From positions 32,001 through 96,000 of the IMG/VR virus record IMGVR_UViG_3300038856_000064: 64,000 bases of DNA; one strand, given 5' to 3'. This document shows positions 26,160 to 47,519 of this stretch, one piece after another. This DNA comes from a virus. Position 1 is the stretch's first letter; the number at the start of each line of letters is the position of its first letter. The notes beneath the pieces are model-generated. The model ran no database searches, had not been told where the DNA came from, and worked only from the letters and a program-made list of their open reading frames with translations. A program made the position numbers and the translations under genes.

Positions 26160-26187
26160 ATTATGTGTCTATATAGTAGATTCGTCC
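26160..26187 (-). promoter_or_regulatory. Phage promoter class B
   Basis: GGACGAA-N11-GACACATAAT. Confidence 0.75.
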
Positions 26188-27248
26188 TTCTTTTTTACCC
26201 TATCTACCACGCCTTTTCGCAAACAATCCCTATAAATCATACTATAGACTAAGTCATCAAAAGAGTATGTTGGCTTCCAACCCAACTCATTATGTGCCAT
26301 ACTAGCATCTCCAATAAGTACGTCAACTTCTGATGGTCGAACAAATTCCGGATTAATTTTTACATACTTACTCCAGTCATCAATGCCAACATAACCAAAG
26401 GCAATATTTAAGAAATCCCTAATGCGGTGTGTTTCCCCCATTGCTATTACATAGTCTTTGGGTTTATCTTTCTGAAGCATTAACCATGCGGCTCGCATAT
26501 AATCCTCAGCATTTCCCCAATCACGATAAGCATCTAGATTACCTAACTCAATATGACTCTGTTCGCCAGTTAAAATCCTAGCAATTCCGTCAGTTATCTT
26601 GCGTGTTACGAATTCGATTCCGCGATAGGGTGATTCGTGATTGAATAATATCCCCGCCACTGCAAACATACCATATGCCTCGCGATAATTACGCACTAGC
26701 GCATAGGCTGTTAGTTTTGCTACACCATAGGGCGATCTAGGAATCATTGGGGAGTTCTCATTTAAGACGTGTTCAAATATAACCCCATCCTCTGGCTTAT
26801 CCTTACCGAAGATCGCACTATTGCCAAACTGTTCGGAACTTCCCGCCTGATAAAACTTACATTCCGGTGCGAACTGTCTGACTGCTTCTAGACAAACAGC
26901 AGCACCATTGCCAGTGATCTCCAATGTTGAGAGTGGAGATTTGAACGAGTGCCATACTTGAGATTGAGCAGCTAGATTATAAAACTCGGTGGGCTTGTAA
27001 GCTGCCACAATACGCGCAATAGATGAGAGGTCTGTAATGTCACCAGATTCTATGATAAGTTTGGCATCCTTGCAGTATTGCTCATAGTTTGGAATGTCTG
27101 TTAGGCGCCAACCAGTCGAGGAACTCGTCCTACGCTGAATACCAACTACTCTATAACCTTTTTCTAGTAGCAATTTGGCAAGATAAAATCCATCCTGTCC
27201 GTAGATTCCCGTGATCACAGCCGTATGCATTTGATTCTCTTTATCCAT
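26169..27248 (-). CDS. gmd: GDP-mannose 4,6-dehydratase
   Basis: ITGIYGQDGFYLA, YNLAAQS, QAGSSEQFG, PRSPYGVAK, GILFNHESP, FVTRKIT, LGNLDAYRDWG, RPSEVD. Confidence 0.96.
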   Translation of the reverse strand: MDKENQMHTAVITGIYGQDGFYLAKLLLEKGYRVVGIQRRTSSSTGWRLTDIPNYEQYCKDAKLIIESGDITDLSSIARIVAAYKPTEFYNLAAQSQVWHSFKSPLSTLEITGNGAAVCLEAVRQFAPECKFYQAGSSEQFGNSAIFGKDKPEDGVIFEHVLNENSPMIPRSPYGVAKLTAYALVRNYREAYGMFAVAGILFNHESPYRGIEFVTRKITDGIARILTGEQSHIELGNLDAYRDWGNAEDYMRAAWLMLQKDKPKDYVIAMGETHRIRDFLNIAFGYVGIDDWSKYVKINPEFVRPSEVDVLIGDASMAHNELGWKPTYSFDDLVYSMIYRDCLRKGVVDRVKKKDESTI

Positions 27249-27362
27249 TTGTATATGCCTCACTTAGGTCTGCGACCCATTGCATAAATACTGTCTCCAT
27301 TACTGGCCTCTCCTTGAGTGACGACGGTAGATCTGCCTACACCTGAACTTCGTATCCTTGCT

Positions 27363-27713
27363 TCATAGTGTCACCGTGCATTGTGACCAGGGCGGCACGT
27401 CTCTCTCAGTTGTGGTAAAAACAAGAGCCTCCTGATTGTTAGCTAGACTAAATCGACTGCCGTGTTCATCTATTCTGATTTCGTGCACAGTCCAATAACG
27501 CGCCTCGCTTGCACTGAGGCATTCATCGATAACGAATTCTCGCAATTGTTCTAGCTCGATGTTTTTGACAACCCAAGTGGCATCACCATCACCCCCAGCG
27601 AAACATACCTCGCTGAGTAACCAACCCACTAGGCTTTTGATGTGAGCCTTGAAGGTCCATGGCATCTGTTTTAGCGGTTCGCGAATCATAGTACTCCATT
27701 CTCCTGTGCCCAT
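27363..27713 (-). CDS. Hypothetical protein
   Basis: ORF between fcl and gmd. Confidence 0.5.
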   Translation of the reverse strand: MGTGEWSTMIREPLKQMPWTFKAHIKSLVGWLLSEVCFAGGDGDATWVVKNIELEQLREFVIDECLSASEARYWTVHEIRIDEHGSRFSLANNQEALVFTTTERDVPPWSQCTVTL

Positions 27714-28687
27714 TTATAGGTATTGATTAGTGTTGATCTAAAATTAGACTTTGCCTCAAAGCCGAATCGTTCTTTTGCTCTTGATACATCTAGTTGTCTT
27801 CTCGGTTGCCCATTAGGTTTACTTGTGTCCCAGCGTATCTCTCCCTCATAACCGACGACATCTTTGATTGTGTGGGCCAAATCTCTAATCGTTATTTCTT
27901 TTCCTGTTCCGATGTTTACTGGATCAGGATTATCATAATGGAGAGTAGCTTGAAGAATTGCCTCGGCACAATCACCTACATACAAGAACTCTCTTGAGGC
28001 AGAGCCATCACCCCACAAAGTTACGAACGGGTCACCGGCAAGCTTGGCTCGATGAAACTTTTTAAGCATTGCTGGAATAACATGACTACTATCGTCATCA
28101 AAATTATCATGCTCACCAAAAAGATTTACTGGAATAAGAAAGATGCCGTTAAAGCCATACTGTGCCCTGTATGCCTTAAGCATCTCTAGTTGTACACGTT
28201 TAGCAATACCATATGGGGCATTAGTTTCTTCGGGGTAACCATTAAACAGATCTTTTTCCCTAAACGGCACTGGTGTATTTCGAGGATAACTACATACTGT
28301 GCCGATTCCCACAAATTTCTTAATGGGATGATGGCGCCGATAAGACCCATCGGGATGACAGGATCTAACTAAGCTGACCGTTTCATGGCGACAAGATTCA
28401 ATTAAGTTGGTCGTCATCATTAAGTTGTCATATAGGAACTCCCCAGGCTTTTCGCGATTGACACCGATACCCCCGCATTTAGCAGCTAGATGAATGACCA
28501 TGTCTGGATTATTACATGCCATATATTCGGCAATACTATGTTTATCTAGTAAGTCCAACTCGTTATGTGTTGGGGTCATAATATCCATATCTACGACCCT
28601 CCAATAAGACTTACTATATCGGTCAAGCGCTTTTACGACATGATGCCCCAGAAAACCATGACTGCCAGTTATTAGAATTTTAGTCAT
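27686..28687 (-). CDS. fcl: GDP-L-fucose synthase / GDP-colitose synthase (Fcl/ColC family)
   Basis: ITGSHGFLG, HLAAKCGGI, GTVCSYP, YGIAK, SHVIPA, WGDGSASREFLYV, KPNGQPRR. Confidence 0.92.
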   Translation of the reverse strand: MTKILITGSHGFLGHHVVKALDRYSKSYWRVVDMDIMTPTHNELDLLDKHSIAEYMACNNPDMVIHLAAKCGGIGVNREKPGEFLYDNLMMTTNLIESCRHETVSLVRSCHPDGSYRRHHPIKKFVGIGTVCSYPRNTPVPFREKDLFNGYPEETNAPYGIAKRVQLEMLKAYRAQYGFNGIFLIPVNLFGEHDNFDDDSSHVIPAMLKKFHRAKLAGDPFVTLWGDGSASREFLYVGDCAEAILQATLHYDNPDPVNIGTGKEITIRDLAHTIKDVVGYEGEIRWDTSKPNGQPRRQLDVSRAKERFGFEAKSNFRSTLINTYKWAQENGVL

Positions 28688-30638: not shown

Positions 30639-30868
30639 GTCTTGAACCACCCGGCTTCCTCGTCCCAAAATACTTCTTGAGTCTTTTCATAATTTTTAGA
30701 ACTCCAGAAGGACCCATGACAGACAGCCTCATACCACCTATCTTTGTTCCTGTCGTGAACTATCCATCCTTTTTCGCCATTGATTATTGCCTCGCCATAC
30801 GCCGTATTTGTATTGACGCTTACGGTAAAGCCACAAAATGTAGGTGTATTATTCAGCGAATCACCCAT
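30635..30868 (-). CDS. Hypothetical protein
   Basis: 77-aa ORF with a GAGG SD. Confidence 0.55.
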   Translation of the reverse strand: MGDSLNNTPTFCGFTVSVNTNTAYGEAIINGEKGWIVHDRNKDRWYEAVCHGSFWSSKNYEKTQEVFWDEEAGWFKT

Positions 30869-30871
30869 TAT

Positions 30872-31213
30872 TTACCTCGCTTTATAATCCTTTAAGTTCG
30901 GTTCGCGAACCAATTCCTCATTTCCCTCTTTCACAGCCTTGGCAAAAATTTCACCTAGACCAGCAACAAGACGTGGGCGTATAACCCCATTGAGATAATC
31001 TATCTTCCTCTTGATCGCTCCGACTTGAGCATCATCAAAATTTGGATTACGCACTTGATCTTCTAGTTGCCATAGTTTTACATGTACAATGGCAAGTCTT
31101 TCAATAGCATAAGTAAGAGTTACTGGAGGATTAAAAGTACAATCAGACTCAACTAGATGACGAAATTCATCAGTGCGCATGTAGTCGTGGATAAAACTAT
31201 CTAAGTTTTTCAT
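30872..31213 (-). CDS. DUF4254/DUF6165-like helical protein
   Basis: IERLAIVHVKLWQLEDQVR...KIDYLN..R motif. Confidence 0.55.
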   Translation of the reverse strand: MKNLDSFIHDYMRTDEFRHLVESDCTFNPPVTLTYAIERLAIVHVKLWQLEDQVRNPNFDDAQVGAIKRKIDYLNGVIRPRLVAGLGEIFAKAVKEGNEELVREPNLKDYKAR

Positions 31214-31482
31214 TCTATCATCTCCCATCCTTCTTCAATCAAGTCCGTTATTGCATACTGCGGAATCCAATATCCCACTAATTTCATTTCTAATAGCTTT
31301 ATGGCACATTCTATAGGATGTGAGAATAAAAAAGACTGACCATCATACGGTAATCCGATCTCGACTATGGTGCCATCATCCTGATATCTTTTCGCGGCTA
31401 GCTCTAGAACCCACCCGTCATCAGATTCATAAACATATGCATCACATTGAAAATTATTCGTGCTCCATCGACAATAAGACAT
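31210..31482 (-). CDS. Phage hypothetical protein
   Basis: MSYCRWS...CDAYVYES...GYWIPQYA; AGGAGG SD. Confidence 0.65.
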   Translation of the reverse strand: MSYCRWSTNNFQCDAYVYESDDGWVLELAAKRYQDDGTIVEIGLPYDGQSFLFSHPIECAIKLLEMKLVGYWIPQYAITDLIEEGWEMIE

Positions 31483-32369
31483 CAGCTATATACCTCCTTC
31501 ACAATAAGATCAGCTACGGTAGTAACATTTGGCGCGGGGCAAAGCTCCAGGATGTTCTTAGTGCGAATTCCCATGGCTTGACACCCGGTCTTCTGCATAG
31601 GAAAGTCCTTAGAGTGCAAAACAATCATCGGGGTTTCTGTAGCCGCAGCTAGGGTTTTTGCGCCCGAATCTAATCCAAACCACAGGTCACTATTATCGAT
31701 CAGTGATGCCCATTCTTTGTATGGCATCCCCCTTGCATCTATCACATTATTTGGTAACGGCTCATTAGGTGCACCTGTAAAAACACACTTGATATCTTTT
31801 TGTTCTAGTAGGTCAACTAGCAATTGATAATTCTCAGGTGACCAGACCGGACTAGCCGCATAACTTATATGATTCACAGTAATGAATGTCTTACAGGAAT
31901 CGTCACTCTTTTCTGGACCAAGGTCATTATCAAGTATAAATTTGAGCGCAACCCTCTCTTGCTCATCTGTAATATTTAGTACAATACTACGATCTTTTAC
32001 GTCGTTAGGATTCAAGCCTGCATTTCGTGCTCGTAAGCTAATAAAATCTTCGGTAGGGCGCTCGTAGAAATTACTATAGCGTGGCCAGTATTGTAAGTCA
32101 TAATACTTATCATGCCTTTTTACAACATCTAGAATCTTACGATCCATATCATGCTCTGCTTCTTGTCTAGTTGTGTGACCTTCGGGCAATTTCCAATATA
32201 CTATTTCATCAATATGAGGGTTGCCAGCAATAACGGGGGCGAATTTATCTCTTATGTGCCACGAAATAAAAGCATCTGGATGAAGCTCGCGGATGTGTTT
32301 TATTATTGGTGTAGCATAAAGCACGTCAGCCATTGCCCCCCACGCAATAATACCGATCGACTTAGGCAT
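31482..32369 (-). CDS. Glycosyltransferase family 9 (heptosyltransferase-like)
   Basis: GAMADVLYATPII, NPHIDE, W...Y..LV, GLDSG..LAAA..TP. Confidence 0.85.
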   Translation of the reverse strand: MPKSIGIIAWGAMADVLYATPIIKHIRELHPDAFISWHIRDKFAPVIAGNPHIDEIVYWKLPEGHTTRQEAEHDMDRKILDVVKRHDKYYDLQYWPRYSNFYERPTEDFISLRARNAGLNPNDVKDRSIVLNITDEQERVALKFILDNDLGPEKSDDSCKTFITVNHISYAASPVWSPENYQLLVDLLEQKDIKCVFTGAPNEPLPNNVIDARGMPYKEWASLIDNSDLWFGLDSGAKTLAAATETPMIVLHSKDFPMQKTGCQAMGIRTKNILELCPAPNVTTVADLIVKEVYS

Positions 32370-32613
32370 CCTCCCCACCCCCCTCGTCAATCCCGTCAAT
32401 CCCCTCTATAATTGCGCTACGGAGACTATCCTGGCGTCCTCGCACCGCCGTTAGTTCTCTATCTAGACGAGATGTCAACTCGGTTAGTTCGCGATTTTTT
32501 GCCTCTAGAATAGAGAGGGTGTGGTGATTCTCTTCTACTTTTTGAACCAATGCATCTAGCCTAGTCTGTAGTTCTTCGACTCGTTTTTCGTTTTGTTTAC
32601 TTCGCTTGAACAT
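32362..32613 (-). CDS. Coiled-coil protein
   Basis: Heptad pattern; GGAGG SD after a class B promoter. Confidence 0.6.
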   Translation of the reverse strand: MFKRSKQNEKRVEELQTRLDALVQKVEENHHTLSILEAKNRELTELTSRLDRELTAVRGRQDSLRSAIIEGIDGIDEGGGEDA

Positions 32614-32632
32614 GGTGTACCTCCATACCTCT

Positions 32633-32660
32633 ATTATGTGGCAAGATGCCTATTCCGTGC
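32633..32660 (-). promoter_or_regulatory. Phage promoter class B
   Basis: GCACGGA-N11-GCCACATAAT. Confidence 0.7.
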
Positions 32661-32668
32661 GGATTTTC

Positions 32669-33388
32669 TTATATATGCCTGATGCTACTCGAATCAAGAC
32701 GCCATAGGGCACAAAGTTCAGGTAGGCGGTGGAACTTATATCCAGCTAGTATGGCCTTTTTCCAAGTCTCATAATCTGGTGACTTACCGTCTAGCTTGAC
32801 ATCAGAGCGCGAGAAGCCACCTAGTTGTTTTAAAATCTCAGGACGATAAATCATAGTGGTATGCCCCAAACAATTCTGCCCCTTAGTTAACAGGCAATGT
32901 TTTATCTGTTCATGTGTACAGACATCTAGATTAGGTTCATTGGGCTCCACATAATCTAACTCTAACATTTCTGGTGCAGGGTCTCCATAAAATCCTACCA
33001 TGCGAGTAGAAATAAATGAAATTTCTGGATGGTTTCCTAAGAACTTCATCTGCAACTCTAATCTTTGAGGATGGATAATATCATCAAGATCAAAATGCCC
33101 CATCCATTCTGTATCAACTAGAGATGCGCCATAATCAATTACCGCTCCGATTACTGGTTCGCTCTTAAATGAATAAGAGTCAACCCTATCCCAAAGATCA
33201 TCACTCAGGCAAGATAGGGCATCGTTCCACTCAAGCACCTTCTCGGACGTATCCCAATCCCAATTGTGGGCGATGAAGATGATATTAAAATCTCGAAATG
33301 TCTGTCTCTCTAGTTGTTCTGCCCAATGCTTAATCCAAGGACGGTGAGCTTCATGACAATATGAAAGAATTGTTAAGTTCTTAGTCAT
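32669..33388 (-). CDS. Glycosyltransferase family 2
   Basis: QTFRDF, FDLDDIIHPQRLELQ, LGGF...DYETW. Confidence 0.85.
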   Translation of the reverse strand: MTKNLTILSYCHEAHRPWIKHWAEQLERQTFRDFNIIFIAHNWDWDTSEKVLEWNDALSCLSDDLWDRVDSYSFKSEPVIGAVIDYGASLVDTEWMGHFDLDDIIHPQRLELQMKFLGNHPEISFISTRMVGFYGDPAPEMLELDYVEPNEPNLDVCTHEQIKHCLLTKGQNCLGHTTMIYRPEILKQLGGFSRSDVKLDGKSPDYETWKKAILAGYKFHRLPELCALWRLDSSSIRHI

Positions 33389-33598: not shown

Positions 33599-33600
33599 GC

Positions 33601-33816: not shown

Positions 33817-34825
33817 TCCATCCCCTTCCCGTTCTCCAGTCCTCTATGAAATTTTTCATCCTAGTTGTCCACAAATTTTTCTCACGTTTATGATATGCCG
33901 CATTAGCAATTTCTTGTCGTTCATGTGGATGATCCAAGTAATACTTGATGCCATCGATCATATCGTGCACAAAGTGATACTCTACAAATTCTTTATTGGG
34001 TGTGTAAATCTTATGAAGATCATCTGTCTCTGTATGTTGGGTAGTAACCATGAAGGCTCCGCATCCCAATAATTCGAAATCTCTTCCCTTGATTTGGCCA
34101 TGGTTAGCGCTCCTAGAACACCAACGTAAGTTAAGGTTGATCATACTATCATTAAAGATGCTAACCATATCTTTACAGCTAGGGCGCCCATGATGATCTG
34201 GATGATCTCCCCAAAAGTGTCCCCACGTATGCACACGAATCCCAGCGCCACGTAATTGAGCAATGATACTCTCACGAATTCCGTGTCTTTGCCCGACAAA
34301 CGATACCTCGAATTGTGGCCCTGTAAATGATAGCTCGCGATGACACCAACTAGGAATTCCGAATGGCATATGATAACACTTTACTCCATCATTGCGAAGT
34401 TGATCCATCATATGAAGCGCTGGACTAATTGTGTGAGTATCATACCCCTCTGTGACTCTAGACTCTACAAAGCGGTCGCCCGAATAATGCTTATAGCGCA
34501 TATGGATATCGGGGTGATAGCTTACTATTGGAGTGCCGCCGTCGATTATTTGACGAGCCTGCGGGAGGTGAATACCCAATGCATGCGTGACTGGAATTTG
34601 GAAAATTAAGTCAACGCCCTTTGCAAGACTTACTAAACGCTCTAGCCCCTTAGGGTCGCTCTGAGTGTCAACCCAATGTGTCTCTAGCTCTACTAAACCC
34701 TCGTCTTCTAGTTGCTTCCATGGTTTATAGATATTTTCGTATTCCCACGAGGCGTTGGAAAAGTCAGGCTTCATCTGTCCGTTCTGCCCAAAGTCAGCAT
34801 ACAAACAGGCTAGTAAAATCTTCAT
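33809..34825 (-). CDS. CgeB/Glyco_trans_1_2-like GT-B glycosyltransferase
   Basis: EVSFVG...R, SMINLN, QIKGRDFELLGCGAF, IKYYLDHPHERQEIA. Confidence 0.85.
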   Translation of the reverse strand: MKILLACLYADFGQNGQMKPDFSNASWEYENIYKPWKQLEDEGLVELETHWVDTQSDPKGLERLVSLAKGVDLIFQIPVTHALGIHLPQARQIIDGGTPIVSYHPDIHMRYKHYSGDRFVESRVTEGYDTHTISPALHMMDQLRNDGVKCYHMPFGIPSWCHRELSFTGPQFEVSFVGQRHGIRESIIAQLRGAGIRVHTWGHFWGDHPDHHGRPSCKDMVSIFNDSMINLNLRWCSRSANHGQIKGRDFELLGCGAFMVTTQHTETDDLHKIYTPNKEFVEYHFVHDMIDGIKYYLDHPHERQEIANAAYHKREKNLWTTRMKNFIEDWRTGRGWNG

Positions 34826-35553
34826 TACTCCTCCACCAAATTTAGATGTATCCGGTAAATCTTACCGTCGATCTCAATCTTACGCCCAGACCAGTCATTA
34901 TCAAATGTCCGAGCCCTAAGTTCATTGATAAGATCATAGCCATCATATAAGCGCATTTCACTCTTCGTTATGGGGGGCAACTCAAAGTCTTTGCTATGGT
35001 GACTAACCGCCTTACTTTCGTCTTGTGGGACCCCATTGGGTATATGATTATTTGCAATTAGAAATAAATTAGTATCTATCAACTCCTTCATCGCTTTGAC
35101 TGCCTTGTCGTAGGCAGACTCTCCCGTATCCAGTGGTGTTAGCTCAACCTTCTTTTGCCATAGAATATTACCCGTATCGACTCCATCATCGACCCTATGA
35201 ATAGTGACCCCAAACGGTGTCCCCTCTACGATGGACCAATAGTATGGATGCTTTCCTCTCCCGTATGGGAGATAAGATGGGTGGGTATTAATTACTGTTA
35301 GTCCTGGAGTTTTATGGATATGCTTAAGAATCTTAGGCCACCAAGCGAGTACAATTAGATCAGGTTTGAATGTATCTACAAGGTGTTGAGTAAGAGACTC
35401 ATCTGTATATTTAAATGAAGGAATATCCTCTAGCACACACCACGCCCCCTCATGTTGAACAAAGGCAACATTTTCTGGACGGTATGAAATTATCCGATCA
35501 CAAAGATATTTGCCAACCTCGTGATTACCAGCAAGTATACCTATCTTAGTCAT
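34825..35553 (-). CDS. Sugar N-formyltransferase (N10-formyl-THF dependent)
   Basis: INTHPSYLPYGRG, GVTIHRVDDGVDTG; short protein without an Fmt C-domain. Confidence 0.85.
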   Translation of the reverse strand: MTKIGILAGNHEVGKYLCDRIISYRPENVAFVQHEGAWCVLEDIPSFKYTDESLTQHLVDTFKPDLIVLAWWPKILKHIHKTPGLTVINTHPSYLPYGRGKHPYYWSIVEGTPFGVTIHRVDDGVDTGNILWQKKVELTPLDTGESAYDKAVKAMKELIDTNLFLIANNHIPNGVPQDESKAVSHHSKDFELPPITKSEMRLYDGYDLINELRARTFDNDWSGRKIEIDGKIYRIHLNLVEE

Positions 35554-37355: not shown

Positions 37356-37609
37356 TAAATAAAATCCCTCATATCATTCATAGTATGCTCGACAACCCTA
37401 GCGCTATCCCACCAATCAAAATGATCTAGATGATTCTTCATCTCTTCTTCTGAATCATCTTTAAAAAGATCTCTTAGCCACGCATGACCATCAGCGTTGT
37501 ATTTATCACAAGCCTCCTGTGCTGCCTCCTCTGTATCAAAGATGCCCAGAAGATTATAACCCTCATCATTTGAGTTAATGACAGTGTATACTGTTCTATG
37601 TGTATCCAT
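37355..37609 (-). CDS. Hypothetical protein
   Basis: 84-aa ORF with LLGIFDTEEAA. Confidence 0.55.
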   Translation of the reverse strand: MDTHRTVYTVINSNDEGYNLLGIFDTEEAAQEACDKYNADGHAWLRDLFKDDSEEEMKNHLDHFDWWDSARVVEHTMNDMRDFI

Positions 37610-38318: not shown

Positions 38319-39223
38319 AGAATTTCATTATCCTTACACCAAGATATTATAGTTTCTGCGCGATTTTTGTACGAGTGATTCGCGTGCATATACTCCATCA
38401 AGCGCTGACCATTCTCTCGCATTTCCTTAAGCCTATTCGGATGGCAAAACTCGACATCCTTAATCATTCTTTCTAGTTGCTCAAACGAATCAAAACACTG
38501 AACAGAATCATCTAGAAAATCAGGGATAAATTCTTTGAAATCCTCATAGCTAGCGCGATCCATCAAAAGATTAGTGCCACAACCAGCCGTTTCCCAGGGG
38601 CGTCCTGGTACCAGCCCCCTACATGCATCCTGATTGATATGTATCATTGTATATAGCTGATTAGTCTCGTCGATCAGCGCCTCGCCGAAAACGCCATTCA
38701 CGCAACGAACCTTCTCTAGTAGCTTTTCTCTCTCGGCAGTTATACTTCCTACAAACCCTATCGTAAACTGCTTTAGTATTTCTGGCTTACGCCTATGAAT
38801 TTGTGGAGAGCATGCGTATGGTAAATGTAATACTGGACTAGGTGTTCTTTCTTTAAATCGATCAACAAATAATTTGTTAGCAACTAGATAGCCATGATAA
38901 CTATCACCGAATGCCTTTTTGAATGATTGCTCTGGATGATAACTTACGTCAAAATCCCAATATAGTCTTGGAATGTACTTAAGGTTATGGTGGTAGAACA
39001 AGGAACTATAACCGGACATTCCATCGTTCATCTCAGTAACTATAAGAAGGTCAAACTCCTCTTCTCGGGCTTCTTTAGCACCTAGGAATCTATACGGCTC
39101 TTCATAAAAGTTTCCATAAAAAATAGCCTCGTGACCTGCTTGCTTAAATCCCTCAACTAATTGCTGAGCCGTGCAGCGGTCTGGTTGTTGGGGAATACAT
39201 CTCCCGGTTACTAGGACTTTCAT
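38315..39223 (-). CDS. CgeB-like GT-B glycosyltransferase
   Basis: Start moved to MKVLVTG; HLPYAC, IGFVGS..R, RPWETAGCG, NHSYKNRA. Confidence 0.8.
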   Translation of the reverse strand: MKVLVTGRCIPQQPDRCTAQQLVEGFKQAGHEAIFYGNFYEEPYRFLGAKEAREEEFDLLIVTEMNDGMSGYSSLFYHHNLKYIPRLYWDFDVSYHPEQSFKKAFGDSYHGYLVANKLFVDRFKERTPSPVLHLPYACSPQIHRRKPEILKQFTIGFVGSITAEREKLLEKVRCVNGVFGEALIDETNQLYTMIHINQDACRGLVPGRPWETAGCGTNLLMDRASYEDFKEFIPDFLDDSVQCFDSFEQLERMIKDVEFCHPNRLKEMRENGQRLMEYMHANHSYKNRAETIISWCKDNEIL

Positions 39224-39339
39224 ACTATCAACCCAATAATAAGCCATGTGACAAGAAGGACTAAAAATAAAGTAATACTTCTTCTCATATGACGACGTTC
39301 TTCTTTTGAAGAGTAATAATCTTTTGGAGGATATGTCAT
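39220..39339 (-). CDS. 39-aa single-pass membrane microprotein (not in the ORF track)
   Basis: MTYPPKDYYSSKEERRHMRRSITLFLVLLVTWLIIGLIV; ATGA-coupled at both ends. Confidence 0.65.
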   Translation of the reverse strand: MTYPPKDYYSSKEERRHMRRSITLFLVLLVTWLIIGLIV

Positions 39340-39863
39340 ACTCCCACCTCATCTATAACCCTACAAAGAATGCTATCCAAGTTCTTTTCGACACTAGGAT
39401 TACCAAGGTTTATGATTGGGATATTGTTTTCTCTAGCGACACGCATAGCTAATGCAGTACCACCTACATATTTGCCCTCATCAGTATAACAAATTACTAA
39501 ATCAGATGGGGTTTTTAAATCTACACCTAGAACCTGAAATATATTACGTTGCTTGATACGCTTTACACCCTGAGATATATCATCGTTAGCATAGGGGTCA
39601 TGACGATAAACAAGGTCGAGTGCATCGTCGCGTAACTCTTCTGTATGAGCACGCCCAAGAATTGGCAGCTCCTTATTGAAGGTGCTCCATGGCATGTATA
39701 TTATACAGTGATCTCTAGCGCCACGCTCGAAAGCATAATCTGCTCCTTCTGCATGTCCTGAGCGAATCCACCATCCACGCTCGCGTGCTTCTGCGCCGAG
39801 TTCTACAAATAGGTCGCAAATTTCAGGTGTAGTGTTACGCGAGCCAATTCCGGTAATTATCAA
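39336..39863 (-). CDS. SLOG superfamily (DprA/YspA-like) nucleotide-binding protein
   Basis: ITGIGSRNTT, RSGHAEGADYAFE, RNIFQVLG, GGTALA. Confidence 0.8.
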   Translation of the reverse strand: MIITGIGSRNTTPEICDLFVELGAEARERGWWIRSGHAEGADYAFERGARDHCIIYMPWSTFNKELPILGRAHTEELRDDALDLVYRHDPYANDDISQGVKRIKQRNIFQVLGVDLKTPSDLVICYTDEGKYVGGTALAMRVARENNIPIINLGNPSVEKNLDSILCRVIDEVGV

Positions 39864-40585: not shown

Positions 40586-41620
40586 TTATAACCTATATGG
40601 ATGATGTGGATGTGACTCTCGTAAAGTGTTGCCTGTAACAACTACAAACTCGGCACGATTTCTCAACGACTCAATATTGCGAGCGCCGCTATAGCTAAAG
40701 CCACTACGAATACCAGCTTCAAGATTCTGCAAAGTATCAGCAACGGGACCTCGGTAAGGAACTTTTGCGCTGACACCCTCAACTCTAGGAGTTCTCTCAC
40801 CCCTCTTTTCTTTTTGTGCCGCATATGATGCTGAGCCTCTAAAAGTTTTGTATGTTAAGCCATTTTCAACTAGACGATCTCCTGGAGCCTCATCTGTCCC
40901 AGCAAGCAGTGCCCCTAGCATTACTGCATCAGCGCCGGCTGCCAAACCCTTAACAATGTCGCCTGAATACCTGATACCACCATCACCTATGATGGAGACA
41001 CGCCTATCATTATTCCCCCTCAGTCCTTCTAGCCTTAGGGTTATATCGACGTCTTCAATAGCACTAAGTTGAGGAAAACCATGTCCACTCACAACTCTAG
41101 TTGAACAAACGCTGCCAGGTCCAATACCAACCTTAATGATATTAGCTCCAGCTTCAACTAAGCGAAGGGCAGCCATTCCCGTAGCAACATTGCCTGCAAT
41201 GATATCGGTGTCTGGACAAATCCCCCTAACTCTGTGAATAAATTCAGCTACACGCTCATGATCACCATGAGCTACGTCTACACAAATCATATCAAAAGCA
41301 AGCGGATTTATACATAGAGAAAAATCCCCCTCTGAAATGCCACGAGAAACAATACGTGGGGCACCAACCTCTTTGCACATATTTAGCCATCGTTGTTGCC
41401 AATGACTGTCGGCAAATCGATGTAGGACACCGGCGCCACCCGCCTGATGCATTGCAACTGCCATCTCGCCCTCAGTGACCGTATCCATATTAGAAGATAA
41501 GATCGGCAGGGTCAGCTTAATCCTACCTACAGTAGTACTAATATCTACATCATTTCTAGATGCAATATCCGAGTGCTGTGGCACGAGGAGCACGTCATCA
41601 AAACTATAGGCTGGCTTCAT
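40586..41620 (-). CDS. guaB: IMP dehydrogenase / GMP reductase family (no CBS domains)
   Basis: [66 protein letters not shown] versus GMPR is unresolved. Confidence 0.85.
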
Positions 41621-41621
41621 T

Positions 41622-42299
41622 CTAATTTTCATTAAATATCTCGTGGTGTTCAGGGTGTAATCGCTCTCCGTTTGGGCCAATAATTGAACCGACAAAATCA
41701 TCCCCCTGGCGTGGAATAGGAAACGTCATACAGTGACGGTGAATATCGCTAGTTGGATAAATCTTATGTGCAACTAGAGGATAGACATACTCTTTCAAAA
41801 AATCCTGGTCACATTGCCAGGCGTCTTTATATTGTTTTGCGAATTCTTTTATCATGGGCGCCATTTGTAGACAGGCATGCCTTTTCATTCCGAACATGCC
41901 ACCCATCAGTCCCAACCTTGGATTAAAATGATAGGGGTGATCAGCCATTGAGTGGACAAGTTTGGTACTCTGCATCCATTCTTCAACGGCAAGAGCTTCT
42001 CGCTTACTTAATCTTGAGTCGCAGTCTCTAGAAATAAAAATATCCACGTCATCTTCACTAGCGGGAAGAAATCTTGCAAACATACCCTTCCAGCCCTCTA
42101 GCCCCTTGGGTATTTCTACCACGTCTGCGCCTAGCTCAACTAGACGGATTATAATATCTGACGGCACTGAGTCTAAATCAATATAAAACCTACACCCCCA
42201 TCCTGGATAAATCTTGGGTGCAAGCTCGGCATTACGGATCGCACCTACCGTATATTTTTCTTCGCTCCCCCAAAGTGAAAAGGTAATACGTTTCTTCAT
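41622..42299 (-). CDS. Putative GT-A glycosyltransferase-like protein
   Basis: ITFSLWG..KY..GAI.NA, GMFARF, SRDCDSR (DxD), DHPYH, GGMFG, DQDFL. Confidence 0.6.
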   Translation of the reverse strand: MKKRITFSLWGSEEKYTVGAIRNAELAPKIYPGWGCRFYIDLDSVPSDIIIRLVELGADVVEIPKGLEGWKGMFARFLPASEDDVDIFISRDCDSRLSKREALAVEEWMQSTKLVHSMADHPYHFNPRLGLMGGMFGMKRHACLQMAPMIKEFAKQYKDAWQCDQDFLKEYVYPLVAHKIYPTSDIHRHCMTFPIPRQGDDFVGSIIGPNGERLHPEHHEIFNEN

Positions 42300-42305
42300 A
42301 TCTCT

Positions 42306-42333
42306 ATTGTGTGTCTATCGGTCAAATTCGTGC
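42306..42333 (-). promoter_or_regulatory. Phage promoter class B, leaderless
   Basis: GCACGAA-N11-GACACACAAT-N6-ATG. Confidence 0.7.
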
Positions 42334-43133
42334 AGAAAATCTTTATACCGCTTATAGTAATCCGGTGACGCAAACTTCGTGTCGTTCTCTAACGCTATGA
42401 TAGAAGGGCTACTAGGAAAAAACTCCTCGATGGCGCGCAAAGCCTCAAAATTACTTCTTTCCTTATCTGATTGTTCTAGTGAGTCTGGTCTTTGATTATA
42501 AATACTTAGGCACGAGGGAATAGAAATACCAGAAACACCTAGAGACATAAAGTATAGGACGAGCCAATAGTCAAAAGCCGATCGATATTCCATCCCAGCC
42601 TTAAACATACGCCTCCAGTCCACGAGATCCCGCAACTTATTATCCCAATGCACATGCACGCCGCAACGAAAGAACTGTTGTAGGTCGAGAGACGAATAGG
42701 TAGGCGGAACCCCCTTAGCGATCACCCTATCATTTACTCTTGTCTCATAACCTCCATAGTAAAAGTGACTCTTTTCTTGGCGCAACATTCTATTTCTTCT
42801 AGATGCTTCGTAGGCAGCCTGCAAAATCTGAATCCCTCTCCATGGAAATGATCTATCATCCGTATTTGAATTGGTGACGATCCTTCCTTTGGCGCAATGC
42901 CATCCAACCAACCAACTAAATCCATATGGTGTTCTTTTAGGCTGCTCAATAAGCTTAATGCGCGAATCCTTCTCACGCCACTTCTTGATTATCTCTACAC
43001 TGCCATCCGTTGATGCGCTATCTACAATGATATGCTCGAAGTCTTGAATAGTTTGTTGTAAGGTATTTTCTATCAGTCCATCTAGAAACTGTTCAGAGTT
43101 GTAGCAAGAGGTGATAAAGCTAACTTCGGGCAT
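42315..43133 (-). CDS. Glycosyltransferase family 2
   Basis: VSFITSCYN, QQT..DFEHIIVDSASTDGS, NSNTDD, AFDYW. Confidence 0.9.
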   Translation of the reverse strand: MPEVSFITSCYNSEQFLDGLIENTLQQTIQDFEHIIVDSASTDGSVEIIKKWREKDSRIKLIEQPKRTPYGFSWLVGWHCAKGRIVTNSNTDDRSFPWRGIQILQAAYEASRRNRMLRQEKSHFYYGGYETRVNDRVIAKGVPPTYSSLDLQQFFRCGVHVHWDNKLRDLVDWRRMFKAGMEYRSAFDYWLVLYFMSLGVSGISIPSCLSIYNQRPDSLEQSDKERSNFEALRAIEEFFPSSPSIIALENDTKFASPDYYKRYKDFLHEFDR

Positions 43134-43134
43134 A

Positions 43135-43374: not shown

Positions 43375-43376
43375 TG

Positions 43377-44426
43377 TTATACCTCTACAGTGTTAAAGAA
43401 CTTATCATACCCCTGCTTCTTTTCTTTTGCGAAGATCCAAATTAATGGAATATCTTTTAGGTTATATGGCTCTACACCATCAGGTCCATCAAAGTAGGCT
43501 AAATCTTTACGAGCTAAAAAAGAATCCCTATGTTTGGTGACTGAATGCCCCTCCATAATTAGAGGATGCTTGTTGTCAAACCTTAATACCGTATCCAAAT
43601 CCTCAGTTTGATTTAAATACTCATCAGTTTGTCCACCACGCGCATATGCGCCAACGTCACCATGTTTATCCTGCCCCAATTCCTTATCATAAAATTCCTT
43701 CTTTGCCCTGATCTCTTCATTATTATCCTTACAATACGAATAATGATATACTACAAAACTAGGTAGGACAAACCTACGACTTAGATAGCGAGGATCAAAG
43801 TAAGTGCAAACTCCATTTGCATCGCGAGCTACAGGATGATTAGCGTAATTTAGCCCCGGCTGAAAGCGAATAAAGCGCTGGTGTTGTTGGCCCCAGTCGC
43901 CACTCGGTTTACGAATATGATAGGCATCGCGCCAGAAGTGATAGAATCCAGCAGGGACAAATTCGGTAGCCCATGGCTCAATAGAGATTGCCTTGCGTAG
44001 CTCATCAACAACCTCTGGATGGATGAACTCGTCAGCATCAGTAATGAGCATCCAATCTCCCTCTTGCATATACTGAAAGAAGGTGTTCTTAAGTTCTTCT
44101 AGATCCTGCCAAGGGCGATCGATCTGCACAAAAACGATCTTACGATCTGGGTCTTTATTGTCCTTGACATCCTTGATGATCTCAACCGTGCGATCTAACG
44201 AATGACCATCTGGCGTCGCCTGCCCTGCGGCGACCTTGCTTTGGACAGCACCCTCAATAACGACAATACGATCTACCTTATCGTAAAGCTGAAGCATACA
44301 AGCTTCAATAAGCTTCTCCTCATTACAGGCTTGGATACATTGCACAATTTTAGGTTGCTTGTCGATGGCATCACAGATAGCACCAACTTGGTTGGGTAAA
44401 TTATTATTAAACGGGTTATCAGACAT
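43377..44426 (-). CDS. GT2-like glycosyltransferase
   Basis: ACNEEKLI, VIEG...SLDRT, WMLITDADE, HYSY. Confidence 0.8.
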   Translation of the reverse strand: MSDNPFNNNLPNQVGAICDAIDKQPKIVQCIQACNEEKLIEACMLQLYDKVDRIVVIEGAVQSKVAAGQATPDGHSLDRTVEIIKDVKDNKDPDRKIVFVQIDRPWQDLEELKNTFFQYMQEGDWMLITDADEFIHPEVVDELRKAISIEPWATEFVPAGFYHFWRDAYHIRKPSGDWGQQHQRFIRFQPGLNYANHPVARDANGVCTYFDPRYLSRRFVLPSFVVYHYSYCKDNNEEIRAKKEFYDKELGQDKHGDVGAYARGGQTDEYLNQTEDLDTVLRFDNKHPLIMEGHSVTKHRDSFLARKDLAYFDGPDGVEPYNLKDIPLIWIFAKEKKQGYDKFFNTVEV

Positions 44427-45645
44427 TGCTAGCCTCCTGTTTGTCAGCTACTACGCCCTCGATGACCTCTAGCATCTTTGGCCCAATAACTGAATAATCA
44501 AATTCCTTCATATCCGGTGCAGGCTTTAGTTCCTGACGTGCCTCATAAACACTGCGCATCTGGTTCATCATAGAAGATACTGATGGTTCCGCAATCTTAT
44601 CAAAACTCGTATAGAGTTCTGGATCTGCATGTCCTTGTCCCACTAGAGGCTCCATAGAATACCGTACTGGATAAACATTATTTTTAGGAATTTCTCTAAC
44701 TGGATAGTGACCAGGAATCATGCCGGCCTCCCCCTCTGGAATGTCAACGTATTCGGTATCGAATGCAAATTCGCCCATACCGCCCCAGGAGGTAGTGACT
44801 AGCTTATTGCCGTAAGCTAATGCATCGAACGCTGGCAGGCACCACCCCTCTCCGCGACTACTGCATACATAACAGTCTCCAGTCTTGTGAAGTTTTTTAA
44901 CCTGTTCCTCAGTAAGAGTTTTGGTCACGACCATAACTGGCGGATAACCATCAGCGGGTAGTCTCATGCCTTGTTTTGCGCCGTCAATGTATGCGCGCAA
45001 CCTATCACGCTCGCCATTACGATCGCCCCCCATATTGATGTATGTCTTCAGAATTAAGATCACATCTTTGTGGCCATGAAATTCCGTTAGATAAGACCTT
45101 AGTAAAACATCGATTCCCTTCTTGGCAGAAAACTGACTAATGTTATAAAACACGAACTTATCAGTAAGAAATTCTGGATCGGATGTTGCGGAGATCGATT
45201 CAATCCCATCTAGATTATAAGATGAGATGTCGAAAGTGTGCGGCACCTTAAAGGTTGGCACCGTAACACCGGAATCCCTGAATGCCTCCACGCTAGCCTG
45301 GCAAAAAGTAATTACGCCATCAAACTTATTGAGCTTATCAACCCAATACTGTGGAATTCTAGTAGTCTCCCAGGCGACAACAGCAATATTGATCTTGCCG
45401 TCTACGGGGCGCATTTCATTTGGCGTGCAGTGCTGTATAACAACGTCAACGCCGTTAAGGTCTTTTGTAAGCAACTGGCGCTCTAGATCTGTTGGCTTGT
45501 AAGCCGTGCCAGGATCTGCTTGATCATAACGCACAGGACGTACAACTAGATCAACCCCCGCATCGTGTAATGCCTTAATATAGCCCCGAGCAGCGGTTGA
45601 ATACCCGCTAAAGTCTCTAACTGGTCCAATGTATAAAGCTTTCAT
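44419..45645 (-). CDS. Glycosyltransferase family 4
   Basis: SGYSTAAR, AWETT, KKGIDVLL, SRGEGWCLPAFDA. Confidence 0.9.
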   Translation of the reverse strand: MKALYIGPVRDFSGYSTAARGYIKALHDAGVDLVVRPVRYDQADPGTAYKPTDLERQLLTKDLNGVDVVIQHCTPNEMRPVDGKINIAVVAWETTRIPQYWVDKLNKFDGVITFCQASVEAFRDSGVTVPTFKVPHTFDISSYNLDGIESISATSDPEFLTDKFVFYNISQFSAKKGIDVLLRSYLTEFHGHKDVILILKTYINMGGDRNGERDRLRAYIDGAKQGMRLPADGYPPVMVVTKTLTEEQVKKLHKTGDCYVCSSRGEGWCLPAFDALAYGNKLVTTSWGGMGEFAFDTEYVDIPEGEAGMIPGHYPVREIPKNNVYPVRYSMEPLVGQGHADPELYTSFDKIAEPSVSSMMNQMRSVYEARQELKPAPDMKEFDYSVIGPKMLEVIEGVVADKQEASNV

Positions 45646-47519
45646 ACTATCATAGCCTCAAAAGAGTCTCCATTGTCTTGTTCATTAGTACTAGGTGCCA
45701 AAGTCTTACTTCCTGCACGCAAACGCTCTACTTGATTCTGCGCCTCAGCCTGTTGACGGAAGTAGTTTGCGACCTCCTCGCGTGTCTTCTGAGCCGGGAC
45801 TCCACGAGAGAGTTCAACAGCTAGTTTTTGCAACCATGTCCTTCGACCATCCTCATCAATATCGTGCTCACCACTATAGCCTAATAGTTTGGTATAACAC
45901 CAGACAACGAACTCTTCATTCGTCATGCCTGGATCTGGCTGCTGCATATCGATATCAATTAGGCTAACGTCCCTATCCCATGTTTCGTCACGATCAAGTG
46001 GAGTGATGTGATCTAGAATAAATTCCCAAGTCTTCCAGGTCTTATCCCAATCATAGTGTTCTTCGGCACATTCACGAGCCTCTGCCTTCATACGAGATAA
46101 GCGCTCATGATCACCTAGTAACTCGCCCATCTTTTTAGCGCAGTCTTCCATTGATGTGTGTGCTCTCCAACAGGTTGTCTCGGGCTCTTCATAAAGATAT
46201 GCCACGTCCATGACCTCTCCACCCTTATGAACACTATAAGTTTTCTTATTGATGTGATCATAATCTGGAACCCTACCCTTTTCAGAAATGGCGGCATAGT
46301 CTGTCACTAATACAGGAACACCACAGGCTTTGGCTTCTTGTACGGGCATTCCGCAGCCTTCGGCGATACTCATCTGCACCATTAGATCAGCCATACCATA
46401 TACCTCTGCTAGTTGCTCTCTGGTGTATCCCGCTCCAGTGGTCGGAGTGCGGGCGCTTTGCTGTCCACACTTGGGACATCTAATTACGGGATGCTGTCGC
46501 AGATTAATAGACGGTGCGATAAACACATCCCCACACTCTGGATTGTGACACATAAAGGTCGAATTGACCTCACGAATAAATCCCTTTCGTGTAATTGGCA
46601 CACCATGATATCCCGTCTGGATGCGAGCTACGGCTCGCGGAAAATCAATCGACATAGCGTTATCTGGCCATGCCGTATGCATTACCAAAATTGACTTTTG
46701 TACGGTCTCATTATCAGGGAACGCACTCTTCATTAAGGCAAATGAACGTAATACTTCGGAGATACGCTTACGTGCTTGATTACGTTGGACTAATAGAATA
46801 ATAGGAATGTCTGGTCTAAGGCCCCACTTCTTTTTAAGTGCTGCCTTTTCTTCGTCAGAACGCGGACGGAAGGTCTTAAGGTCGACACCTGGACGAAGTG
46901 GAACAGGATGTAGCTTGCCTGGCGCCTTGTCAATTCCAATAAAGCCTGGCTTATCTGGCGGGCTTGTGCGTAGCTCTAGTCGTGGCGAAGATTTTCGTAA
47001 TGAATCAATACCAAAGTCTGAGTATGCCATCACATATGTAGCACTATTGAACGTAGAAATCCACTCCTCTTTTTGAGGAATAGAGTCTACGGTCGGCATG
47101 ATAAGCCAACTAAAGTATTTACGAAATGGGCTACGCTCTTGAAAGGCAAGCATCCACCAGTCACGAATATCGATTACAATATCTGGTCTAAAATCGCTAA
47201 GAACTTTCTCAAACTTCCAGCGACCAAACTGATTAGTATTCTGTCCTGGCTGCGCTGGGTCAGCCTGATTAAAAATCTGCTCCTCTTCCGGAGTCATGGG
47301 TTGATTACCATAAAACTTCCAGCGGCCAGCAACGAAATCTCTTGCGCGAGGATCATCATCCCTAACATACGAACCAAGCTCTGCGATCTCATACTTGCCC
47401 GTTGCGGCTAATCGCGGCAATAACTCTCTATAAATATTGGAGAATCCCGTATTTAGGGACGACGCCTCGCCTACAAACAAGATACGCTTTTTATAATTTT
47501 CCTGATTCTCAATTCCCAT
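45642..47519 (-). CDS. Glycosyltransferase family 4 with Zn-ribbon insert and C-terminal DUF4214-like domain
   Basis: TGFSN, RNQARK, CHNPEC..CPKC, AEGCGMPVQEAKACGVP, NEEFVVWCYTKLLG..DEDGRRTW. Confidence 0.88.
   Translation of the reverse strand: MGIENQENYKKRILFVGEASSLNTGFSNIYRELLPRLAATGKYEIAELGSYVRDDDPRARDFVAGRWKFYGNQPMTPEEEQIFNQADPAQPGQNTNQFGRWKFEKVLSDFRPDIVIDIRDWWMLAFQERSPFRKYFSWLIMPTVDSIPQKEEWISTFNSATYVMAYSDFGIDSLRKSSPRLELRTSPPDKPGFIGIDKAPGKLHPVPLRPGVDLKTFRPRSDEEKAALKKKWGLRPDIPIILLVQRNQARKRISEVLRSFALMKSAFPDNETVQKSILVMHTAWPDNAMSIDFPRAVARIQTGYHGVPITRKGFIREVNSTFMCHNPECGDVFIAPSINLRQHPVIRCPKCGQQSARTPTTGAGYTREQLAEVYGMADLMVQMSIAEGCGMPVQEAKACGVPVLVTDYAAISEKGRVPDYDHINKKTYSVHKGGEVMDVAYLYEEPETTCWRAHTSMEDCAKKMGELLGDHERLSRMKAEARECAEEHYDWDKTWKTWEFILDHITPLDRDETWDRDVSLIDIDMQQPDPGMTNEEFVVWCYTKLLGYSGEHDIDEDGRRTWLQKLAVELSRGVPAQKTREEVANYFRQQAEAQNQVERLRAGSKTLAPSTNEQDNGDSFEAMIV

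Follow-up and report, generated by a model that had tools for sequence, protein, structure and literature searches.

A glycosylation island and a conserved Ser-Gly signature point to a probable sugar coat on the virion in a clade of ~175-kb phages

The DNA analyzed here is a 64,000-nucleotide window, bases 32001-96000 of the 175,148-bp IMG/VR record IMGVR_UViG_3300038856_000064 (hereafter G000), a phage genome that is 82% complete according to CheckV. Beyond ~12 kb, every gene in the window lies on the minus strand, and an island among these genes, at 26169-47519, encodes sugar-nucleotide enzymes together with ten soluble glycosyltransferases (GTs). The original prediction, made from the letters alone, had listed at this island Gmd, Fcl/ColC, two DegT-fold enzymes, methyl- and formyltransferases, and about ten GTs. 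We found all of these genes at the positions given for them, on the minus strand, and the GT classes were exactly as listed, namely one GT9-like, four GT2-like, two GT4, two CgeB-like, and one GT-A-like enzyme. We compared the island with relatives from independent metagenomes (G001, G002, G006, and G007); a search with a CgeB-like protein alone gave no relatives, and a GT2 alignment was required. G001 is 59 kb long, and G007 is a genome of 176,061 bp with terminal repeats that is 100% complete. The sugar-nucleotide enzymes and GTs of the island, with lengths in amino acids (aa) and the matches on which each call is based, are as follows.

26169..27263, minus strand: GDP-mannose 4,6-dehydratase (Gmd), 364 aa; PF16363 4.9e-111, TIGR01472 4.7e-107
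27686..28687, minus strand: Fcl/ColC-like GDP-4-keto-6-deoxyhexose epimerase/reductase, 333 aa; NF047922 (GDP-L-fucose synthase) 2.3e-85, PF01370
28680..29879, minus strand: DegT no. 1, ColD/E1-type 3-dehydratase dependent on pyridoxamine phosphate (PMP), 399 aa; PF01041 2.9e-56, ColD 1.9e-20
31482..32399, minus strand: GT9-like (heptosyltransferase-family) GT-B enzyme, 305 aa; PF01075 7.7e-05, TIGR02193 2.5e-11
32669..33388, minus strand: GT2-like, 239 aa; PF13641 and PF00535, both weak, with the G007 orthologue passing PF00535
33809..34825, minus strand: CgeB-like (Glyco_trans_1_2), 338 aa; PF13524 8e-26; kept in G001, G002, G006, and G007
34825..35553, minus strand: sugar N-formyltransferase, 242 aa (cassette A); PF00551 1.1e-21
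35546..36232, minus strand: methyltransferase dependent on S-adenosylmethionine (SAM), 228 aa (cassette A); PF13578, PF13847
36219..37355, minus strand: DegT no. 2, aminotransferase for nucleoside diphosphate (NDP)-4-keto-sugars, Lys retained, 378 aa; PF01041 4.8e-86, ArnB 1.1e-52, perosamine synthase 4e-37
37596..38318, minus strand: GT2, 240 aa; no Pfam match; profile against PDB, chondroitin synthase GT2 domain 5.8e-15 and SpsA 3e-6
38315..39352, minus strand: CgeB-like, 345 aa; PF13524 1.3e-08
41622..42299, minus strand: GT-A-like protein, 225 aa, conserved D-C-D; AlphaFold2 (AF2) model of moderate quality (pLDDT 69), Foldseek
42315..43133, minus strand: GT2, 272 aa; PF00535 8.2e-18
43377..44426, minus strand: GT2-like, 349 aa; PF13704 and PF00535, both weak, passing the cut-off once neighbouring in-frame matches are added
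44419..45645, minus strand: GT4, 408 aa; PF00534 1.5e-06
45642..47519, minus strand: clade-hallmark GT4, 625 aa, with a Cys4 finger insert and a helical C-terminal domain; PF00534 2.9e-13

The 625-aa GT4 at the head of the island has at least 984 homologues on contigs of up to 183 kb, some of them with inteins. Its AF2 model (pLDDT 88) has as its top fold match the chlorovirus NY-2A GT 3oy2 (TM-score 0.81 on the target), followed by generic GT4 enzymes, and its finger-like insert carries the invariant cysteines C324, C329, C348, and C351. Among the GTs, Pfam also gave a weak match to PF20706 ("GT4 in conflict systems"), at 1.1e-4. A tblastn search with this protein against 50,697 phage records, in which the other GTs were not searched individually, returned only Tetrasphaera phage TJE1, at 23% identity over 45% of the query, and a megablast of the island against 50,697 phage records gave 0 matches. 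In G002 (30768-33809) and G006 (67250-70273), the same GT4 occurs in forms of 1007-1013 aa that contain Hint, LAGLIDADG, and intein-splicing domains, and the 708-aa Fcl-like gene of G006 likewise holds a LAGLIDADG intein.

The remaining GTs vary in how closely they resemble characterized families. For the GT9-like enzyme, 102 homologues were found, all within the same phage clade; a profile of 27 of its homologues hit the GT9 structure 3tov (4.5e-9) and WaaC (0.011) in the PDB. The same profile gave no match to TibC, and we rejected an assignment to the TibC type. Single-sequence PDB searches with the GT9-like and CgeB-like proteins gave 0 matches. The 240-aa GT2 is called from its PDB profile and from its G007 orthologue, which matches PF00535 at 2.4e-16; an hhalign comparison with the 272-aa GT2 family yielded a probability of 41%. 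The 225-aa GT-A-like protein has no sequence-family match, and its profile search against the PDB was likewise empty, while Foldseek returned only GT-A folds (GT24 UGGT, GT8 glycogenin, GlyE, and PBCV-1 A64R, at TM-scores of 0.4-0.5). All GT2 matches in the genome fall inside the island. As had been claimed, none of the GTs has a convincing transmembrane (TM) segment, and the hydrophobic stretches that we did see were marginal and lay within globular folds.

The sugar-nucleotide enzymes appear to form two branches. Because no NDP-sugar pyrophosphorylase was found in G000 or in the complete G007, GDP-mannose from the host must be the feedstock. Gmd scores 358 bits against TIGR01472, below the equivalog cut-off of 415; its identity is 74-83% among the clade relatives but does not exceed 51% with any of 600 cellular matches or 48% with the enzymes of cultured phages, which are mostly cyanomyoviruses. 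We rejected Gmd as a guide to the host, its best cellular matches being 45-51% identical and scattered over many phyla. The Fcl/ColC-like enzyme reaches 286.8 bits against an Fcl model with a cut-off of 500, and these scores do not separate Fcl from ColC. A His at the position of the PLP-binding Lys is the hallmark of PMP-dependent 3-dehydratases such as ColD and E1. In our alignment, DegT no. 1 has such a His at the Schiff-base position (S-N-H versus G-N-K in perosamine synthase) in all four genomes compared (G000, G001, G006, and G007), whereas DegT no. 2 retains the Lys, and both ColD and E1 are among the PDB matches of DegT no. 1. Given this His-type DegT beside Gmd and the Fcl/ColC-like enzyme, the three probably constitute a GDP-colitose-type branch, with the identity of the product taken from family chemistry. 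DegT no. 2, the N-formyltransferase (PDB best matches VioF, 4.2e-16, and then other sugar N-formyltransferases), and the methyltransferase would analogously make up a formamido-sugar branch, which is most economically fed by the Gmd product as well.

Comparison of the genomes shows that the island belongs to the phage. Family searches identified ribonucleotide reductase (RNR), a DnaE-type polymerase, a DnaB-like helicase, SSB, and a phage sigma factor with region 2 only in the window, and, downstream in the genome, a LamG-bearing fibre of 1498 aa, a tape measure of 2180 aa, a portal, and a large terminase; G000 is apparently a large phage with a noncontractile tail. In both G001 and G007, the island is complete and placed between the sigma/SSB/polymerase module and the RNR module, with the same gene order, amino acid identities of 42-83%, and differences limited to small open reading frames (ORFs) and a homing endonuclease gene of the HNH type. 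G002 and G006 keep the conserved GTs and the colitose branch but carry an exchanged amino-sugar cassette: where G000 has the formyltransferase, methyltransferase, DegT, and GT2, G006 has a DegT of 26% identity, two methyltransferases along with two GT2s, and a GNAT acetyltransferase, the latter standing in for the missing N-formyltransferase. Should the glycan indeed coat the virion, this exchange would suggest that diversifying selection acts on it, for instance through host recognition, shielding from host or grazer factors, or colloidal behavior in sediments. A distant relative, L051, whose GT4 is 45% identical, has the order sigma, GT4, GT4, GT2, further GT4s, IMP dehydrogenase (IMPDH)-like, CgeB-like. 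The synteny, the island head that stays beside the sigma factor even in L051, and the inteins in the GT4 and Fcl-like genes together suggest a core, strongly selected phage module.

The virion proteins of this lineage carry an unusual signature. When all dipeptides were scanned in the G000 virion proteins, leaving aside the tape measure, Ser-Gly (SG) ranked first, with 139 occurrences against 67.7 expected [observed/expected (O/E) 2.05, z 8.7], while the second-ranked dipeptide reached a z of 3.3. The reverse dipeptide GS occurred at an O/E of 1.05 and TG was depleted at 0.67, and SG was hardly enriched in the non-virion proteins (O/E 1.10). The serines of these dipeptides are also conserved. 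Between orthologous virion proteins of G000 and G007, 117 of 136 SG serines were kept (86%), as compared to 232 of 554 other serines (42%; p = 1e-21), and the effect was replicated against G001 (73/80 versus 125/260, p ~4e-13) and against G002 (74/95 versus 89/258, p ~3e-13). In non-virion proteins of G000 and G007, by contrast, SG serines were conserved no better than the others (43% versus 41%), and in the internal tape measure only 3 of 11 were kept. Conservation was not raised at other X-Gly dipeptides (AG 0.50, TG 0.54, NG 0.61, DG 0.60), and the profile around SG was a sharp two-residue peak (0.87, 0.88) with flanks at 0.5-0.67.

Single proteins show the same pattern. The fibre, which is 44% identical between G000 and G007, kept 40 of 46 SG serines and 40 of 114 others; against G002 (33% identical), the counts were 32 of 46 and 29 of 114. 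In a 68-member alignment of a 495-aa tail protein that has 11 SG, column identity was 0.96 at SG serines, 0.62 at other serines, and 0.75 over all columns. Smaller SG-rich tail proteins measure 176, 196, and 222 aa. A further candidate acceptor, an 1119-aa virion protein that runs off the end of the window, retained all 17 of its SG serines in both G007 and G001, as against 33 of 62 (G007) and 39 of 62 (G001) other serines.

61431..64000, minus strand: virion protein, candidate acceptor, C-terminal 856 of 1119 residues in the window; 17 SG against 8.0 expected

We considered whether a conserved nucleotide motif could underlie this signal, and codon usage ruled that out. All six Ser codons are in use at SG sites, 61 of the 117 conserved sites have a different codon in G007, and 10 of them switch between TCN and AGY. 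Selection on SG thus acts at the level of the protein, not the DNA. A general conservation of SG in virion proteins was ruled out by a control in which 21 virion protein pairs of T4 and RB49 were run through the same script: here, SG serines were kept at 37% versus 35% (p = 0.87), and the O/E of SG was 1.14, equal to that of GS. The context of the dipeptide is loose, with Pro, Ala, or Val before it and a hydrophobic residue after it, and Thr almost never replaces the Ser. In the LamG-bearing fibre (1498 aa), residues ~1160-1240 contain internal repeats of the form S-G-L-V-G-x-[FY]-[ML], which hold a minority of the SG sites. Overall, these patterns suggest that SG marks a Ser-specific and dipeptide-specific function on the exposed virion proteins of this lineage.

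The genome offers no sign of machinery that would carry a glycan out of the cell. The families of Wzx, Wzy, WecA/MraY, WbaP, and GtrA (PF01943, PF04932, PF00953, PF02397, and PF04138) gave no match in four records, while control genomes scored, and in a Kyte-Doolittle hydropathy scan no ORF exceeded four hydrophobic segments in G000 or two in the complete G007. ABC-2 transporters are covered by this hydropathy scan of G000 and G007 only. A GtrA candidate on the opposite strand, an ORF of 145 aa (window 4098-4535) with four hydrophobic segments, was rejected, since it had no Pfam match and was negative for PF04138. The lack of Wzx, Wzy, GtrA, and polyprenol-phosphate transferase that had been noted for the island hence extends to the whole 175-kb record and to the complete relative. 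Tyrosine integrase (PF00589) was absent from six records, and from this absence the lineage looks virulent. Neither a ThyA-family hydroxymethylase (PF00303) nor TGT/DpdA (PF01702) was found in G000 or G007; the rest of these two genomes thus yielded neither flippases nor base-modifying enzymes of these families. The step from missing export genes to a cytoplasmic acceptor is, on its own, a weak one, as soluble GTs could use undecaprenyl-linked intermediates and flippases of the host.

Precedents exist for what the island may do. BAHT enzymes such as TibC and Aah modify, in the cytoplasm, many Ser but not Thr residues on beta-rich or beta-helical surface proteins, including Ser in N-S-G-G (PMC4358343). 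They are GT-B enzymes with a Cys4 metal finger for substrate binding; in the island, one enzyme belongs to the GT9 family and one GT4 has an insert with an invariant Cys4 set. The likeness has limits: the 305-aa GT9-like protein lacks, besides a TibC profile match, the N-terminal extension/beta-barrel, the Cys4 cluster sits in the GT4 and not in the GT9 enzyme, and BAHTs add a single heptose, whereas ten GTs imply an oligosaccharide. Among phages, virion glycosylation by phage-encoded GTs is established for mycobacteriophages (Che8, Corndog, and others), where few GTs are involved and the glycans sit at the C-termini of capsid and tail-tube subunits, according to papers that cite this work (PMC12619734 and PMC11256854). 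In those systems, soluble phage GTs and methyltransferases act there, without export genes, on the phage's own capsid and tail proteins in the cytoplasm, a layout shared by the island. The two differ in that the island belongs to an unrelated phage lineage and has ten GTs and two rare-sugar branches, with candidate SG sites spread over ~15 virion proteins, mostly of tail and fibre. Homology to the mycobacteriophage enzymes was not seen in the tblastn search, which was made with the 625-aa GT4.

A resemblance to the fibril glycosylation clusters of giant viruses had also been proposed, and it is a fair analogy that does not extend to relationship. Chloroviruses and mimiviruses glycosylate their virions with their own enzymes, and the chlorovirus glycans are N-linked at atypical sites. 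As with PBCV-1 A64R and the Mimivirus fibril clusters, the island combines virus-encoded sugar-nucleotide synthesis, including Gmd, with cytoplasmic GTs, and the giant viruses decorate virions without the host secretory machinery. They infect eukaryotes, however, show no sequence-level kinship to the island, and differ in attachment chemistry, and the fold matches are to generic GT-B and GT-A enzymes.

On balance, we favor the reading that the island is a phage-owned cytoplasmic O-glycosylation system that acts on exposed virion proteins at Ser-Gly serines, a reading that we hold to be fairly probable. The connection between island and signature is an inference from circumstantial evidence: we draw it because ten soluble GTs stand without another acceptor in sight, because the module is a deeply conserved, intein-bearing core of the genome, and because BAHTs provide a precedent. 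Under such a scheme, Gmd would convert host GDP-mannose to GDP-4-keto-6-deoxymannose, from which the His-type DegT and the Fcl/ColC-like reductase would produce a colitose-type 3,6-dideoxyhexose, while the Lys-type DegT, the N-formyltransferase, and the methyltransferase would yield a methylated formamido sugar resembling N-formylperosamine. Still in the cytoplasm, the ten soluble GTs would next assemble an oligosaccharide on virion proteins that are folded or in the course of assembly, the acceptors being the tail fibre, the distal tail proteins, the tail tube, and proteins of the head surface. Candidates for the initiating enzyme on Ser are the 625-aa GT4 with its Cys4 finger, or a pair formed by the GT9-like enzyme and the DUF4254 protein encoded beside it (see below). 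The island head (the 625-aa GT4, the 408-aa GT4, and two GT2s) would probably make the protein-proximal part of the glycan, and its outer part would vary with the exchangeable amino-sugar cassette, which is of the N-formyl kind in G000, G001, and G007 and of the N-acetyl kind in G002 and G006. The cytoplasmic acceptor of the original prediction thus gains support from the Ser-Gly signature as far as virion protein is concerned, while DNA, the other acceptor that it had named, is disfavored by the missing base-modifying handles.

We are more tentative, and would put its chances somewhat below even, about a bolder form of this proposal: that Ser-Gly is a true O-glycosylation sequon read by a soluble phage transferase, most plausibly the 625-aa GT4 or the GT9-like/DUF4254 pair, and that a large, globally distributed clade of ~175-kb uncultured phages thereby covers fibres, tail, and head surface with an O-antigen-like, colitose-type oligosaccharide whose outer amino sugar is swapped between N-formyl and N-acetyl forms.

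The other genes in and beside the island, and the promoter-like copy within it, are listed here.

30872..31228, minus strand: DUF4254 protein, 118 aa; PF14063 2.7e-08
32631..32665, minus strand: internal copy of the bipartite motif, CACGGA-N15-CCACATAATA, 26 nt upstream of ORF 32362-32613
40586..41701, minus strand: IMPDH-like enzyme without Bateman domain, 371 aa; PF00478 7.9e-99
47509..48699, minus strand: HNH-repeat homing endonuclease, abutting the island; PF18780 1e-32
48709..49335, minus strand: phage sigma factor, region 2 only; PF04542 3.5e-07

The DUF4254 gene adjoins the GT9-like gene in G001 and G007 as well, and in G006 its ORF call is fused to a GIY-YIG endonuclease; a literature search on DUF4254 returned nothing informative. 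In all, three GIY-YIG/NUMOD3 endonucleases, this one included, are scattered over the island of G006. The IMPDH-like gene is retained in the island even in the distant L051. Its best PDB matches are a CBS-less IMPDH (1.3e-79) and GMP reductases (1e-53), and the enzyme may boost guanine nucleotides for GDP-sugars or just serve DNA synthesis. A MazG-like and a DprA/SLOG-like ORF, both weak matches, lie inside the island too. The original prediction had listed neither these two ORFs nor the IMPDH-like, DUF4254, and HNH genes. The HNH gene sits between the sigma factor and the first GT4 in G000 only and is missing from all relatives; it is an insertion outside the glycan pathway. The sigma factor is found directly upstream of the island at the same place in G001, G002, G006, G007, and L051.

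The original prediction had described small ORFs and class B promoters interleaved with the glycan genes. A motif search bears out a bipartite promoter-like motif, CACGAA-N14/15-(A/C)CACATAATA, with ~10 copies in the genome (window ~26158-26192, 32631-32665, 50266-50300, 54134, and 61397; genome 14270, 26834, 46078, 124968, and 174755), which precede replication, tRNA-region, and island genes and mostly lie just upstream of Shine-Dalgarno sequences. In the island, this amounts to one internal copy (~32640) and one at the 3' edge (~26167) only. The island genes otherwise follow one another closely, their stops and starts overlapping, and a sigma-70 consensus scan of the island gave no signal (46 sites versus 49.5 expected). 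The copy at 50266..50300 (minus strand) likely drives SSB, the sigma factor, and the promoter-proximal half of the island (47519 to 32669), and the region-2-only sigma factor may be what reads the motif. The island is probably expressed together with replication genes, from two promoters. This pattern is compatible with enzymes that are made before the virion proteins, and it favors no particular acceptor.

Elsewhere in these genomes we noted several possible insertions. The PHROG match of the RNR (window 18229-21342, 1037 aa) is split into a block at residues 21-379 and another at 823-1006, and just 36% of the protein is covered by G001, which suggests an insertion of ~440 aa, possibly an intein, in G000. 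In the large terminase (genome 131757-134840, 1027 aa), the terminase matches are split, with helicase-like and unknown matches between them, and another inserted element is possible there. At window 24687-25451, a 254-aa protein with helix-turn-helix (HTH), NUMOD3, and DUF559/MTES_1575 endonuclease-like domains has the look of a homing endonuclease; it is kept at the same place in G001, G006, and G007 at 69-78% identity and may have been domesticated. Public metagenome-assembled genomes labelled Thorarchaeota and Nitrososphaerales contain contigs of the same phage clade, and these labels probably reflect mis-binning and not a host signal.

Several observations weigh against the virion as the target. 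Every relative that we found carries both the island and the SG signature, the inferred sugars are classic O-antigen sugars, and the GT9-like enzyme is by sequence nearer to lipopolysaccharide (LPS) heptosyltransferases than to TibC. The promoter class of the island is shared with replication genes and not visibly with structural ones. The combination of SG with a hydrophobic residue after it could be a structural motif for turns in virion folds rich in beta-structure, and some of the fibre sites do fall in the S-G-L-V-G-x-[FY]-[ML] repeats. Lastly, G000 is only 82% complete, although the complete G007 covers the gap. Some of these points feed an alternative in which the phage GTs would modify undecaprenyl-linked or lipid A-core-linked intermediates of the host, and host Wzx/Wzy, ABC transporters, and ligase would export an altered LPS or capsule, with superinfection exclusion or a smaller loss of progeny on debris as the benefit. 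Colitose-type and formamido sugars and a GT9-family enzyme are indeed typical of LPS pathways, O-antigen GTs are normally soluble or peripheral, so that the absence of TM segments is no objection, and the promoter class of the island is also that of early/middle replication genes. Large T4-like cyanophages (P-SSM2, S-SCSM1, and S-SCSM2R) with gmd, NDP-sugar epimerases, and up to 13 GTs have been read as modifiers of the host surface, a reading applied to cultured cyanomyoviruses with gmd and many GTs (PMC12801897). Like the island phage, those with LPS/cell-wall clusters are virulent and large and combine gmd, NDP-sugar enzymes, and many soluble GTs with no obvious export; this is a descriptive class and not a homologous family. 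The Gmd enzymes of S-SCSM1, P-SSM2, and P-SSM5 are, at 46% identity, among the closest to that of the island in cultured phages. These cyanobacterial myoviruses differ, however, in having GT10, GT11, and GT25 enzymes in several clusters and no reported sequon-like signature, and no homologue of the 625-aa GT4 was found there by tblastn, a search in which the other GTs were not included. Remodelling of the host surface would also give no account of why exposed virion proteins of this lineage carry a Ser-Gly signature at the protein level. Even the complete genome yielded no initiating phosphoglycosyl transferase, flippase, polymerase, ligase, or GtrABX. Wzx/Wzy- or ABC-dependent polysaccharide loci need an initiating phosphoglycosyl transferase and a flippase or transporter, and the serotype-converting modules of temperate phages (GtrABX, Oac, and phage Wzy), which also alter a glycan with phage genes, need a GtrA flippase, a bactoprenol GT, a polytopic GtrX/Wzy, and lysogeny, all of which were not found for the island phage. 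Without an integrase, there would be no lysogenic conversion, and a set of ten GTs that keeps its order across deep divergence and has inteins within it resembles a core function more than an accessory specific to one host. We therefore regard modification of the host surface as unlikely, if worth keeping in mind.

Other cytoplasmic acceptors are more doubtful still. The GTs could act on a host protein, such as a defence or receptor-synthesis protein that is thereby disabled, on a small molecule, or on a phage protein that is not part of the virion, with SG reflecting a different modification or a structural need. The sequences tie no GT to an acceptor, the fold matches are to GT4, GT2, and GT8-like enzymes of a generic kind, and the weak PF20706 match would fit such a role. 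Ten GTs and two rare-sugar branches nevertheless far exceed the needs of known effector-type glycosylation, and the SG signature supplies a ready set of acceptors; we rate this account as improbable. Hypermodification of DNA, in which the GTs would glycosylate modified bases for restriction evasion, has in its favor that phage GTs often glucosylate DNA and that complex DNA glycans are known (papers cited in PMC12619734), as well as the MazG-like, DprA/SLOG-like, and IMPDH-like nucleotide genes within the island. The usual chemical handles are missing, however, and GDP-linked dideoxy and formamido sugars with ten GTs are without precedent on DNA, which makes this account very hard to sustain. 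An artefact, that is, host DNA mis-assembled onto the phage or a recent host-derived insertion, draws on the bacterial look of the enzymes and nothing more. It is refuted by synteny, as assemblies made independently from different samples, among them a complete genome with terminal redundancy, agree in gene order and flanks. GC content (0.39-0.46) and strand skew are uniform along the minus-strand part of the window and run on from the island into its flanks; the phage promoter motif is found within the island, as are homing endonucleases and inteins; and Gmd is far closer within the clade than to any cellular match. We consider its probability negligible.

To our knowledge, the phages with documented glycosylated particles are so far limited to a few actinobacteriophages, whose gene sets are small and lack a defined attachment signal, and our literature search found neither a phage colitose pathway nor a phage sequon described. 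If the bolder proposal holds, no sequon would have been defined earlier for virion glycosylation in bacteriophages, and no glycan pathway serving it would be more complex. Ser-Gly would then offer a sequon open to testing, and the island would provide candidate enzymes for cytoplasmic protein glyco-engineering. The "LPS gene clusters" of marine cyanophages might likewise be re-read as directed at the virion and not at the host. For the phages themselves, it would mean that an entire environmental clade devotes ~12% of its genome to a complex, O-antigen-like coat of glycan, attached to the particle at a simple address of two residues.

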